64,000 bases of DNA from NCBI GenBank assembly GCA_963757525.1, contig CAVWRM010000002.1, positions 12,795 to 76,794 on the forward strand, given 5' to 3'. The DNA comes from an uncultured Gemmatimonadales bacterium. GTDB lineage: Bacteria; Gemmatimonadota; Gemmatimonadetes; Gemmatimonadales; GWC2-71-9. The notes beneath the pieces were generated by a model. That model saw only the letters and a list, made by a program, of their open reading frames with translations. It did no database searches and was not told where the DNA came from. Shown piece by piece: positions 49,720 through 53,235 of the stretch. Every line of letters begins with the position of its first letter. Position 1 is the stretch's first letter. The position numbers and the translations under genes are program-made.

Positions 49720-50178
49720 ATGCGGGTCACCACCTGGACCGAATACAGCCTCATCATTTCGCTGCACCTTGCCCGCCGCGGACGGACGGGGTCCGGCCCG
49801 GTCGCGGCAAGGGAGCTCGCCGACATCGAGCGCCTGCCGGCTGACTACGTCGAGCAGATTCTCCTGCGCCTGCGCCGCGCGGGCCTCGTCGAGAGCGTTC
49901 GCGGCGCCAAGGGCGGATACTTTCTCGCCAAGGAACCGTCGGCCATCTCCGTGCGGGACGTGATGACCGCCTCCGAGCATCAGACCTTCGAAGTCAACTG
50001 CGATTCCCATCCGGTGGATGCCGAGCGATGTAGCCCGGGCTCCACCTGCAGCATCCGGCCGGTTTGGCACGCCCTCCAGCAGCGGGTCGACGAGTTGCTG
50101 GCGAGCATTTCACTCGCCGACCTGATGAAGCAGGAGCTCCAGGTTCAGGAACTGGTCGGGATCTCATCGGCGAGCTAG
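49720..50178 (+). CDS. Rrf2-family transcriptional regulator
   Basis: MRVTTWTEYSLIISLHLAR...ELADIERLPADYVEQILLRLRRAGLVESVRGAKGGYFLAK (wHTH), plus Cys residues (CDSH...C...C) that could ligate an Fe-S cluster. Confidence 0.9.
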   Translation: MRVTTWTEYSLIISLHLARRGRTGSGPVAARELADIERLPADYVEQILLRLRRAGLVESVRGAKGGYFLAKEPSAISVRDVMTASEHQTFEVNCDSHPVDAERCSPGSTCSIRPVWHALQQRVDELLASISLADLMKQELQVQELVGISSAS

Positions 50179-50242
50179 GCGTTTCGCGTCTCCGCCCGCG
50201 CCCGGCCGCATCGGCCGGGCGTTTTTCTTTTCGGGGTGGGAC

Positions 50243-51169
50243 ATGAGAGTCGTGACGGACACGGTGACGACGGGCGAGCCGGCCATCTGGAGCGCGGTGG
50301 GCAATACGCCGCTTTTCCCGGTGACCTTTCCGGAGATCGCCACCGACCGCCTGTGGCTCAAGGCGGAGTGGCTGAACCCGGGCGGGAGCGTCAAGGACCG
50401 AACGGCCCGGGCGATTCTCCGCGACGCCATGCGGCGTGGACACTTGCCGGGAAGGCGGCTGCTCGATGCGTCGAGCGGCAACACCGGCATCGCGTACGCG
50501 ATGCTCGGAGCGGCCGCGGGCATCGACGTGACGATCTGTCTTCCGGGGAATGCGAGTCCGGAGCGCAAGGCACTTCTGGAGATCTACGGCGCCGAGGTGA
50601 TCCTCACCGACCGCCTCGACGGAACCGAGGGCGCCTCACGGCGTGCCCGAGAGCTGGCGGCGAGTGAGCCGGACCGGTACTTCTACGCCGATCAGTACGG
50701 CAACCCCGCCAATCCCCAGGCCCACCGTGAGACGACGGGCCCGGAGATCTGGCGCCAGACCGAAGGCCGGATCACCCATTTCGTCGCGGCGATGGGCACG
50801 ACGGGAACCATGATGGGCACCGGCGGGTATCTGAAGGAGAAGAACCGCGGGGTGACCCTCGTCGGGGTGCAGCCGGACGGGCCGTTTCACGGACTCGAAG
50901 GGCTGAAGCACCTGCGTACGACGACGTCGCCGCCGGCCCTGTACGATCCATCGGTTCCGGACCAGGTGATCGAAGTGTCCACCGAGTCGGCCGACGCCGC
51001 GGCTCGGCGGCTGGCACGCCAGGGTTACCTCGTGGGCTGGTCCGCCGGCGCGGCGGTCGCTGCGGGTCTGGGTATTCTCGAGCGGGAGCCCAACGCCTAC
51101 GTCGTCGTCGTCGGATGCGACACCGGTGCGCGGTACCTGAGCGAGCCCCATCGCTGGGAGGCATCGTGA
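50243..51169 (+). CDS. cysM: PLP-dependent cysteine synthase (CysM-type, CysO-thiocarboxylate dependent by context)
   Basis: VGNTPL, NPGGSVKDRTA (PLP Lys) and SSGNTGIAYA. Followed by mec and cysO, as in the mycobacterial cysO-cysM-mec pathway. Confidence 0.9.
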   Translation: MRVVTDTVTTGEPAIWSAVGNTPLFPVTFPEIATDRLWLKAEWLNPGGSVKDRTARAILRDAMRRGHLPGRRLLDASSGNTGIAYAMLGAAAGIDVTICLPGNASPERKALLEIYGAEVILTDRLDGTEGASRRARELAASEPDRYFYADQYGNPANPQAHRETTGPEIWRQTEGRITHFVAAMGTTGTMMGTGGYLKEKNRGVTLVGVQPDGPFHGLEGLKHLRTTTSPPALYDPSVPDQVIEVSTESADAAARRLARQGYLVGWSAGAAVAAGLGILEREPNAYVVVVGCDTGARYLSEPHRWEAS

Positions 51170-51597
51170 CGTTACGACTGGCCGCGTCGATGGCCGACGA
51201 CATCCGCCGCCACGGGGAGGCTGCGTATCCGGCGGAGTGTTGCGGCGCCCTGGTGGGTCGAACGGGGGAACCGGACGTGAAGGAAGTGGTGCGACTGGCG
51301 CCGGCGGTCAACCGCCGCACCGACGACCCGCATCGGTATCTCATCGCTCCGGACGACTTGCGCAGGCTCGAGGCGCAGGTGCGGTCGGAGGGGCTCGAGA
51401 TCGTCGGCTATTACCACTCCCATCCGGATCATCCGGCGGCGCCCTCCGCGTTCGATGCCGATCACGCCTGGCCGTGGTACAGTTATGTCATCGTGCGCGT
51501 GGAGCAGGGCCGCGGCGCGGAGCTGGCCAGCTGGGTGCTGGACGACGATCGCCCCCGGATGCACGCCGAGCCACTCGAAGTCCCGAGCGAGGTATGA
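51166..51597 (+). CDS. mec: JAMM/MPN+ metalloprotease (Mec-like)
   Basis: ECCGALVG (Glu) and the JAMM motif HSHPDHPAAPSAFD (HxH-x7-S-x2-D). GTG 51166 overlaps the cysM stop (GTGA). Confidence 0.85.
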   Translation: MTLRLAASMADDIRRHGEAAYPAECCGALVGRTGEPDVKEVVRLAPAVNRRTDDPHRYLIAPDDLRRLEAQVRSEGLEIVGYYHSHPDHPAAPSAFDADHAWPWYSYVIVRVEQGRGAELASWVLDDDRPRMHAEPLEVPSEV

Positions 51598-53033
51598 CCA
51601 TGTCCGTGACCGTTTCCATCCCGACTCCCCTTCGCAGCTTCACCGGCGGGCACGACGCCGTGGAGCTCGCCGGCTCGACGGTCGGCGAGGTGCTCCACGG
51701 CCTCTTGAGCACTCACGCCGGCCTGAAGCGTCACCTGGTGCAGGACGACGGCCGTCTGCGGACCTTCGTCAACCTCTATCTCAACGACACCGACATCCGG
51801 CAGCTCGCCTCCACCGCCACGCCGGTGCGTGAGGGCGACGTCCTCACCATCGTGCCGAGCATCGCCGGCGGAAGACCCGCGGTCGAAACCGAGCTGCCCA
51901 AGCTCGCCCACGCCGAGGTGCTGCGGTACTCCAGGCACCTGCTGCTGCCCGAGGTCGGTGTCGAGGGGCAGCGGAAGCTCAAGGCCGCGCGTGTGCTCAC
52001 GATCGGAGCCGGCGGGCTGGGATCGCCGCTGTCCCTCTATCTCGCGGCGGCGGGTGTGGGCACGATCGGCATCGTGGACTTCGACGTGGTGGATCTCACC
52101 AATCTCCAGCGGCAGATCGTGCACGGTACATCCACGCTGGGCACGCCCAAGCTCGAGTCGGCCAAGGCGCGGCTCACCGACCTCAACCCCAACATCACGG
52201 TGGACACCTACGAGGCGCGGCTGACGTCCGAGAACGCCCTCGGCATCATCCGCGACTACGACATCGTCGTCGATGGCACCGACAACTTCCCGACCCGGTA
52301 TCTCGTGAACGACGCGTGCGTACTTCTGGGCAAGCCCAACGTCTACGGGAGCATCTTCCGGTTCGAGGGACAGGCGTCGGTCTTTTACGCGAAGGAAGGC
52401 CCCTGCTACCGATGCCTCTACTCCGAGCCGCCCCCTCCGGGCCTGGTTCCGAGCTGTGCCGAGGGCGGGGTGCTGGGTGTGCTGCCCGGCATCATCGGAA
52501 GCATCCAGGCGCTCGAGACGATCAAGTGGATCATCGGCGCGGGTGATTCTCTGGTCGGGCGGCTGGTGCTGTTCGACGCGCTCAAGCTCCGCTTCCGCGA
52601 GCTCAAGCTGCGCAAGGACCCCGATTGCCCGATCTGCGGGACCAACCCGACGATCCACGAGCTGATCGACTACCAGGCCTTCTGCGGCATCGGGGCCGAG
52701 CCCGACTACACCGGTCTCGAGATCTCGGTCGAGGACTTTCGCCGGGAGCGTGAAGCCAAGAGCGACGACTTGGTGCTGATCGACGTCCGCGAGCCTCACG
52801 AGTGGGAGATCGCCCACATCGACGGCGCCCGTCTCATTCCGCTCGGCCAGCTCCCCGAGCGGCTGGGCGAACTCGACGGCCATGCGGAGATCGTCACCCA
52901 GTGCCACAAGGGCAGCCGCTCGATGAAAGCGCTGCAGATCCTGCGCGGCGCCGGCTTCGGAAAGGTGCGGAACCTGGCTGGCGGCATCGATGCGTGGGCG
53001 GAGCGGATCGAGCCGGGGATGGCGCGGTATTGA
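51594..53033 (+). CDS. fusion protein: CysO-like ThiS/MoaD sulfur carrier (aa 1-93, ends ...SIAGG) + MoeZ/MoeB-like E1 adenylyltransferase + rhodanese
   Basis: MTMSVTVSIPTPLRSFTGG...TFVNLYLNDTDIR...GDVLTIVPSIAGG is a CysO-like beta-grasp domain ending in GG at nt 51867-51872. There is no stop codon there. It continues RPAVETELPKLAHAEVLRYSRHLLLPEVGVEGQRKL, VLTIGAGGLGSP, NLQRQ, DNFPTRYLVNDA and CAEGGVLG, then a rhodanese with CHKGSRS. ATGA overlap with mec. Confidence 0.85.
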   Translation: MTMSVTVSIPTPLRSFTGGHDAVELAGSTVGEVLHGLLSTHAGLKRHLVQDDGRLRTFVNLYLNDTDIRQLASTATPVREGDVLTIVPSIAGGRPAVETELPKLAHAEVLRYSRHLLLPEVGVEGQRKLKAARVLTIGAGGLGSPLSLYLAAAGVGTIGIVDFDVVDLTNLQRQIVHGTSTLGTPKLESAKARLTDLNPNITVDTYEARLTSENALGIIRDYDIVVDGTDNFPTRYLVNDACVLLGKPNVYGSIFRFEGQASVFYAKEGPCYRCLYSEPPPPGLVPSCAEGGVLGVLPGIIGSIQALETIKWIIGAGDSLVGRLVLFDALKLRFRELKLRKDPDCPICGTNPTIHELIDYQAFCGIGAEPDYTGLEISVEDFRREREAKSDDLVLIDVREPHEWEIAHIDGARLIPLGQLPERLGELDGHAEIVTQCHKGSRSMKALQILRGAGFGKVRNLAGGIDAWAERIEPGMARY

Positions 53034-53066
53034 GGGCGAAAGGGCGAAAGGGCGAAAGGCGAAAGG
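53034..53066. repeat. tandem (gggcgaaa) x3 + ggcgaaagg; left arm of inverted repeat
   Basis: Copies at 53034, 53042, 53050 and 53058, immediately after the stop of 51594..53033. Confidence 0.9.
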
Positions 53067-53130
53067 AACAACTGGTGAAACGTGAGCCCCGGTGTCCTGA
53101 GATGCCGTAGGCTCACATCACCGGGCTATC

Positions 53131-53150
53131 TTTTCGCCCTTTCGCCCCTC
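53131..53150. repeat. right arm: ttttcgccctttcgcccctc, reverse complement of gaggggcgaaagggcgaaaa
   Basis: Complementary to the 53031-53066 repeat. It abuts the 3' end of tRNA-Leu (53152). Confidence 0.85.
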
Positions 53151-53151
53151 A

Positions 53152-53235
53152 TGCCGAAGGCGGGACTCGAACCCGCACGGGCTTGCGCCCACTGCGCCCT
53201 GAACGCAGCGCGTCTACCAGTTCCACCACTTCGGC
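53152..53235 (-). tRNA. tRNA-Leu (anticodon CAG)
   Basis: The reverse complement is GCCGAAGTGGTGGAACTGGTAGACGCGCTGCGTTCAGGGCGCAGTGGGCGCAAGCCCGTGCGGGTTCGAGTCCCGCCTTCGGCA. It has a 7-bp acceptor stem (GCCGAAG/CTTCGGC), anticodon stem CTGCG/CGCAG with loop TTCAGGG, a long variable arm, and a T-loop GGTTCGAGTCC. Confidence 0.95.

Follow-up and report, generated by a model that had tools for sequence, protein, structure and literature searches.

A CysO-type sulfur carrier encoded in frame with a MoeZ-type E1 beside a JAMM protease gene, a probable carrier precursor of Gemmatimonadales and other soil bacteria

Protein-bound sulfur carriers must expose a free diglycine C-terminus to be activated, yet in the DNA described here such a carrier is encoded as the N-terminal domain of a larger enzyme. 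The window, a 64,000-nucleotide stretch from an uncultured Gemmatimonadales bacterium (assembly GCA_963757525.1, contig CAVWRM010000002.1, positions 12,795 to 76,794), holds four consecutive genes on the same (plus) strand, namely an Rrf2 regulator gene, a cysM-like gene, a JAMM metalloprotease gene and a 479-codon open reading frame (ORF; 51594..53033), in which a CysO-type carrier is fused in frame to a MoeZ-type E1, hereafter cysO::moeZ. We propose that cysM, the JAMM gene and cysO::moeZ probably form a protein-thiocarboxylate cysteine operon, in which the carrier would be made at the N-terminus of the very E1 that is to activate it and be cut free by the JAMM enzyme. The comparative evidence supports this interpretation in that it fits a carrier-E1 precursor cut after the diglycine, for which the adjacent JAMM enzyme would be the natural protease. 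Judged separately, a cut after the diglycine is very likely, and the JAMM enzyme is the likely agent of it.

The domain structure of the 479-residue product is well defined. Pfam placed ThiS at residues 7-93 (E 2.8e-9), ThiF at 112-346 (E 1.9e-83) and Rhodanese at 384-470 (E 3.1e-18), and NCBIfam placed SAMP1/MoaD-type models at residues 12-93 and MoeB/MoeZ-type models at 102-479, the E1 part scoring 489 bits with the MoeZ model NF005902 (below its cut-off of 647) and 474 bits with NF006444 (above its cut-off of 449). The carrier domain (51600..51872, or from the alternative in-frame start at 51594) is a CysO-type beta-grasp domain ending in Ala-Gly-Gly. Residues 3-93 matched the whole 93-residue Mycobacterium tuberculosis CysO (PDB 3dwg_C, residues 1-93; phmmer E 4.6e-20) and a ThiS/MoaD-family protein of Amycolatopsis (4n6e_B; E 1.7e-22), so that the likeness to CysO, drawn by eye in an earlier sequence-only reading of this locus, extends from end to end. 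That reading was also right that no stop follows the diglycine, gcc ggc gga aga ccc gcg being open, and that the ORF continues into a full MoeZ-like protein with ThiF and Rhodanese matches. The adenylation domain (51927..52631; MoeB 1jw9_B, E 4.6e-62) contains the GAGGLG motif, a CxxC...CxxC zinc site and the loop cysteine Cys288, and the C-terminal rhodanese (52743..53003) contains the active-site Cys437 within CHKGSRS. Across 42 fusions, G138, G140-G143, C271, C274, C288, C345 and C348 of the ThiF domain and C437, G440, R442 and S443 of the rhodanese were invariant.

As encoded, the carrier lacks a free Gly-Gly C-terminus, because Gly92-Gly93 (51867-51872) is followed by 386 further in-frame residues. 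The processing site predicted from the sequence, Gly92-Gly93/Arg94 (ggc gga aga, 51867..51875), leads into a 17-residue linker, RPAVETELPKLAHAEVL (51873..51923), which connects the carrier to the E1 core. On the carrier side of this junction conservation is strict, with P88, A91, G92 and G93 invariant and PS[IV]AGG present in 67/67 aligned full-length fusions. On the other side, in 69 fused genes including that of the window, the linker measured up to the conserved L[ST]xxE[IV]xRYSRHL motif spans 10-46 residues (median 19), abounds in Ala, Pro, Thr and Glu, and is unalignable, the P1' residue directly after the diglycine being Ser in 25 cases, Ala in 20, Val in 9, Thr in 6 and Arg in 4, the window among the last. 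An AlphaFold2 model built with a 42-sequence alignment had a mean predicted local distance difference test score (pLDDT) of 85.6 with both domains confident, but residues 91-99 fell below 50, and the carrier-E1 junction is thus predicted to be disordered; the only other segment below 50 was residues 285-290, which include Cys288. The uncleaved fusion would yield the junction-spanning tryptic peptide EGDVLTIVPSIAGGR, and a cleaved one the non-tryptic carrier C-terminus EGDVLTIVPSIAGG.

The fusion is genuine and widespread. ThiS, ThiF and Rhodanese were carried in one protein by 120/120 of the homologues listed, which are 86-96% identical and come from independent JGI, ENA and NCBI assemblies. 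A locus scan that took one genome per species returned 80 loci, of which 68, from about a dozen phyla, had carrier and E1 in a single open frame. These fused loci belong to Gemmatimonadota, Acidobacteriota (Vicinamibacteria, Blastocatellia, Bryobacterales, Terriglobia), Chloroflexota, Ignavibacteriota, Kryptoniota, Armatimonadota, Rubrobacteraceae, Verrucomicrobiota, Elusimicrobiota, Omnitrophota and others. The sequence-only reading could not say how widespread such architectures are; this one proved to be very common in soil phyla, linked to JAMM genes and part of an operon type already catalogued. Among eight same-genus genomes, seven carried the complete open fused frame and the eighth was interrupted by a contig end. 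This genome, G018, which at first seemed to have an unfused E1, was therefore set aside as uninformative. The listed homologues, the 68 fused loci and the same-genus genomes exclude the assembly artefact that the earlier reading had considered. In two loci from uncultured Gemmatimonadales metagenome-assembled genomes (MAGs) of the MFD series (L001 and L004), cysM, the JAMM gene, aspA and others matched the proteins of the window only in several shifted pieces, which suggests assembly indel errors and not real pseudogenes.

The neighbouring gene (51166..51597) encodes a predicted Mec-like zinc metalloprotease of the JAMM/MPN+ family (Pfam Prok-JAB E 5.2e-28; PDB 2kcq E 1.1e-29). Alignment to 2kcq showed the JAMM motif E...HxHx7SxxD to be intact, as E23 and H83-S-H85-x7-S93-x2-D96, and the GTG start of the gene shares the sequence GTGA with the stop of cysM. 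Most loci keep the order cysM, JAMM, fusion, and a JAMM gene lay inside the fetched flanks of all fused loci but three, one of the three being too short to judge. The fused loci L051 and L069 had no JAMM gene within 5 kb, and both genomes encode an orthologous one elsewhere. Searches of 121 Gemmatimonadota genomes with both the fusion protein and the JAMM protein showed a JAMM gene in 20/20 fused genomes (12 genera); of the 100 unfused genomes, 4 had it and 96 gave no match, and one further genome was uninformative. This count treats kin as independent and so overstates the support. In two Gemmatimonadota genomes (G032:C80:52908-54607 and G033:C395:726-1927) the JAMM gene is followed immediately by an unfused E1, and the gap between them is too small for a carrier gene; this is the carrier-less JAB + E1 layout that Iyer et al. 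2006 classed as type 4b (PMC1779556).

In nine loci a stop codon separates carrier and E1, though in none does it come immediately after the diglycine. Their carriers bear 1-27 extra residues, ending in GGV*, GGR*, GGTA*, GGRN*, GGNGDR*, GGVAVVR*, GGSSLRCICS*, GGCCPCGCCCCPR* and GGKDIDDF...CGR* (asterisks mark stops), and 9/9 loci have an adjacent JAMM gene. Given these tails and the adjacent JAMM gene, the carrier appears to be a precursor even when unfused, so that throughout the fused and split clade it would always be made as a precursor, with a tail ranging from one residue to a whole enzyme. In a tree of the E1 sequences, the split forms were nested among the fused ones with at least six separate changes, and this repeated interconversion by fusion and fission argues that both forms are functionally equivalent. 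All nine split carriers share the frame of the E1, which probably reflects how tblastn-based retrieval selected the loci. The split CysO genes of Terriglobia have cysteine-rich tails after the diglycine (GGCCPCGCCCCPR, ...PVGCCPPACGR and GGSSLRCICS; L060:5013-5300, L055:5001-5363 and L075:5001-5297), and the terriglobial locus L063 retains a CCCPSCP remnant in its spacer; a metal-binding or redox tail is possible.

A homologous carrier ending exactly in GG-stop was seen in five other Gemmatimonadota genomes (L081-L085, from G012, G082, G009, G058 and G098), where an unfused second MoeZ gene begins 4-8 nt later in the same frame (GG TGA xx ATG). A thrC-like ORF stands 5' of the carrier in L083, the sole one of these loci inspected for it, and the 2-kb flanks fetched around the carriers held no JAMM or cysM match. 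This layout resembles a stage just short of fusion, or the outcome of a recent fission. Readthrough or selenocysteine insertion at the in-frame TGA/TAG of these five genomes was considered and rejected, the carrier being a different one that ends in GG-stop with an ATG 4-8 nt on; since the search behind these cases shows only in-frame pairs as a single match, they provide no evidence of recoding.

The genome of the window (4.11 Mb in three contigs, 99.98% complete) contains the fused gene as its single ThiF-family match, together with four ThiS-family carriers: the fused domain, a ThiS, a MoaD and a CysO-like protein. The stand-alone ThiS adjoins ThiG and is preceded by a putative thiE, and the stand-alone MoaD adjoins MoaE, with a radical-SAM gene nearby that is a putative moaA. 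The stand-alone CysO-like carrier (G000:C1:2126245-2126481) ends in AIAGG-stop. Directly before it lies a thrC-like pyridoxal phosphate (PLP) enzyme of 429 aa with an N-terminal Cys-rich ribbon, and the pair (G000:C1:2124936-2126484, outside the window) resembles a homocysteine route of the MetM/MetO type; no E1 gene adjoins the carrier at this locus. Because the fused E1 is the only one of its family, it must serve ThiS, MoaD and the thrC-linked carrier too, and the released enzyme presumably activates all three. A second Gemmatimonadales genome is likewise single-E1, and a Rubrobacteraceae genome had no second ThiF match above the Pfam cut-off. In Amycolatopsis, a single MoeZ serves several carriers. 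More widely, one MoeZ with several carriers has been reported in actinomycetes, along with a dual role of MoeZR (PMC3227635).

The surroundings of the fused gene point to its origin. The order in relatives L029 and L087 is AspA, Rrf2, unfused moeZ, smpB and amidase (followed in L029 by a TPR gene), and relative L025 shows the moeZ-smpB-amidase-TPR half; in the genus of the window, the order is AspA, two extra genes, Rrf2, cysM, JAMM, cysO::moeZ, smpB, amidase and TPR. The Rrf2 gene is thus syntenic in relatives with and without the cassette. In the E1 tree, the E1 moiety grouped with the unfused resident MoeZ (support 96/92) and not with the fused E1s of other phyla. Tree and synteny together therefore indicate that the fusion partner is the housekeeping moeZ itself, and the fused E1 is the ortholog of the unfused moeZ found at the same locus in relatives.

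Taking these observations together, we propose the following sequence of events. The JAMM enzyme would hydrolyse the Gly93-Arg94 bond, yielding a MoeZ of ~386 residues and a CysO of ~9.5 kDa that ends in Gly-Gly. The ThiF domain would then adenylate the freed glycine, which the rhodanese persulfide would convert to a thiocarboxylate, and CysM would condense the thiocarboxylate with activated serine into a CysO-cysteine adduct. The same JAMM enzyme would finally release cysteine and regenerate CysO. That adenylation requires a free carboxylate is established for ThiS, MoaD and CysO (PMC4326299). The sequence-only reading had seen here a self-contained cassette in which the JAMM enzyme must cut after Gly93; the comparative evidence fits the precursor half of this proposal, with cleavage and protease being what we infer, but the cassette cannot be called self-contained, its E1 being the sole ThiF-family member of the genome.

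JAMM enzymes have related activities elsewhere: QbsD trims QbsE in the thioquinolobactin system, HcyD trims HcyS in the homocysteine system of Wolinella, and Mec+ hydrolyses the amide of CysO-Cys. For QbsE and HcyS, residues after the diglycine are removed by the JAMM enzyme of the same cluster before activation by the E1, and the nine split relatives are of the same kind. The extension there is one or two residues, whereas here it is an E1-rhodanese of ~386 residues, and cleavage would yield two functional proteins in a 1:1 ratio. Residues after the diglycine are present in the window, in the 68 fused loci and in the nine split loci, with a JAMM gene in the cluster or the genome. A different partner is joined to the carrier in MoaX, the MoaD-MoaE fusion of M. 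tuberculosis, which is cut between Gly82 and Ser83 and requires this cleavage for activity (PMC4326299). The exchange G81A abolishes cutting of MoaX, and the G82A protein is cut but has no activity. MoaX resembles the present protein in that a ThiS/MoaD-family carrier is fused through its GG tail to a partner enzyme, with a small residue after the diglycine, as in most of the fusions (Ser or Ala), but its partner is the sulfur acceptor MoaE and not an activating E1, and no JAMM gene is adjacent.

The CysO/CysM/Mec+/MoeZR pathway of M. tuberculosis (types 4c and 4d, PMC1779556) uses the same four protein families and shares with the present locus the clustering of carrier, protease and synthase, as well as one MoeZ-type E1 that serves several carriers, in line with the dual role of MoeZR (PMC3227635). 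In contrast, mycobacterial CysO has its C-terminus at GG and is encoded apart from moeZ, whereas here the carrier is joined in frame to the E1, the genes run cysM, JAMM, cysO::moeZ behind an Rrf2 regulator, and CysM scores better against the E. coli than the mycobacterial enzyme. Operon type 4c (ThiS/MoaD, E1-rhodanese, JAB and cysteine synthase), to which the present operon belongs, was listed for Solibacter, Rubrobacter, Salinibacter and Chloroflexus by Iyer et al. 2006, who also proposed that JAB enzymes free ThiS/MoaD domains fused to other proteins (PMC1779556). Makarova and Koonin 2010 list fusions of a ubiquitin-like (Ubl) domain with an E1 that Thaumarchaeota have in common with bacteria (PMC2948915). 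Those of Campylobacter and delta/epsilon-proteobacteria likewise have a ubiquitin-like domain N-terminal on an E1-like adenylating enzyme, but that domain is distinct from ThiS, belongs to a thiamin operon that has a separate solo ThiS but lacks a JAMM gene, and was read as a non-carrier (Iyer 2006, PMC1779556); the present domain is of the CysO/ThiS family, ends in an invariant GG and sits with cysM and a JAMM gene, ThiS and ThiG being encoded elsewhere.

Several points weigh against cleavage of a precursor by the JAMM enzyme. The product of cysM (50243..51169), a predicted PLP-dependent cysteine synthase (Pfam PALP E 6.4e-65), scored 306.9 bits with TIGR01138, below the model cut-off of 394, and its best PDB match was E. 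coli CysM (2bht, E 1.2e-67), with M. tuberculosis CysM (3dwg_A) at E 6.8e-45; it thus falls under the NCBIfam cysM cut-off and, as far as sequence goes, resembles E. coli CysM more closely than its mycobacterial counterpart, which depends on CysO. The perfect co-occurrence with a JAMM gene is expected anyway, because a CysM route needs Mec+ for cysteine release, and does not single out precursor cleavage. Our literature search, which did not cover Burroughs et al. 2009 on the E1-like superfamily, where this architecture may be described, turned up no paper naming or testing a CysO-MoeZ fusion and no experiment on any of its members. The stand-alone CysO-like GG carrier of this genome could in principle serve CysM, and Iyer et al. 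2006 gave a different Ubl-ThiF fusion, co-occurring with solo ThiS, another, non-carrier role (PMC1779556). Both of these last observations would suit a fusion that is never cleaved, its N-terminal beta-grasp domain being a non-carrier module that docks CysM or the JAMM enzyme, or a cis-regulator lying in the carrier site of the E1, with free GG carriers doing the chemistry; the relatives whose exact GG-stop carriers precede a MoeZ gene, with no JAMM match in the 2-kb flanks fetched, would suit it as well. We consider such a module improbable, because a non-carrier domain would have no reason to keep an invariant AGG tail, the domain closely matches CysO from end to end, the split relatives with their 1-27 extra residues have it as a separate small protein, and the disordered, hypervariable linker resembles a spacer and not an interface.

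If the precursor is cut after the diglycine, the agent might still be another protease or the protein itself, with the JAMM enzyme acting only later, in the manner of Mec+, on the CysO-Cys adduct. That later role alone already explains the linkage of the two genes, the fused loci L051 and L069 have no JAMM gene within 5 kb, and no protease has yet been assigned to the cutting of MoaX in mycobacteria (PMC4326299). However, both of these genomes encode an orthologous JAMM enzyme elsewhere, none of the 20 fused genomes in the phylum sample is without a JAMM gene, and an enzyme that hydrolyses the amide after CysO-GG already has the specificity needed. QbsD and HcyD, moreover, are JAMM enzymes that trim carrier tails, and we regard a different protease as unlikely. 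It is scarcely credible that the E1 is made from an internal start, the fused product being minor, or that faulty sequencing or assembly conceals a stop or frameshift. An in-frame GTG (Val109) does lie eight codons 5' of the start of the Pfam ThiF match, but it has no Shine-Dalgarno-like motif, and in-frame ATG, GTG or TTG codons are missing from 26/69 fused linkers, a start with a Shine-Dalgarno-like motif occurring in only 14/69, so that separate initiation of the E1 is not a conserved feature; in 9/9 split loci the E1 has its own ATG, behind such a motif in seven. Independent internal initiation, which the earlier reading had named as an alternative, was thus not supported by this survey of linkers. 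As for an error, the related long-read MAG loci L001 and L004 do have broken frames in neighbouring genes, but the fused frame is open in 120/120 listed homologues and 7/8 same-genus genomes, and it is kept through changes of linker length in about a dozen phyla.

The precursor model leads to a further, doubtful proposal, to which we give only an outside chance. If, in this genus, the sole E1 for the thiamin, molybdopterin, thrC-linked and cysteine routes is made only as a CysO-E1 pro-protein, JAMM cleavage, or occupation of the E1 in cis by the tethered carrier before the cut, could gate all carrier-mediated sulfur flux as a checkpoint. The fusion would then be more than a simple device for 1:1 delivery, in an operon that follows an Rrf2 regulator gene.

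The remaining features of the locus concern its boundaries and starts. The first gene (49720..50178) encodes a predicted Rrf2-family transcriptional regulator of the IscR/CymR-like kind (Pfam Rrf2 E 2.1e-32; TIGR00738 108.5 bits). Between it and the operon, only 20 nt 5' of the cysM start, a consensus scan predicted a G+C-rich, terminator-like hairpin (50198..50222; 11 pairs, 10 of them G-C, then the T tail TTTTCTTTTC), which may be the end of Rrf2 transcription or an attenuator for the cysteine operon. At the fusion gene, the second ATG, at 51600, has GAGG 7 nt upstream, and most homologues are 477 aa long; for these reasons 51600 is more likely than 51594 to be the start. With a start at 51600, a 2-nt gap separates the gene from the JAMM stop, and the ATGA overlap is therefore probably no real coupling. 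Of the gene couplings described in the sequence-only reading, the upstream position of cysM and the JAMM gene and the GTGA overlap stand, and the ATGA overlap falls away. Within 53034-53235 of the window, short repeats of the GGGCGAAA type come straight after the fusion stop, and beyond them lie a minus-strand tRNA-Leu(CAG) gene (53152-53235) and then smpB.

The fusion has been catalogued at the operon level and its logic anticipated in the literature, so that the gain lies in confirming and detailing the mechanism of a system whose kind is already known; the local particularity is that the housekeeping E1 fused here is the only one in the genome. Should cleavage be confirmed, a single bacterial JAMM enzyme would both mature a ubiquitin-like precursor and afterwards take off its adduct, two tasks that eukaryotic deubiquitinases perform on ubiquitin fusion precursors and conjugates. 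The fusion would provide a natural and easily assayed substrate, one polypeptide giving rise to two active proteins, and the GG-site processing of fused sulfur carriers would gain an assigned protease, which MoaX still lacks. In this genus, the processing step would lie upstream of thiamin, molybdenum-cofactor and cysteine synthesis.

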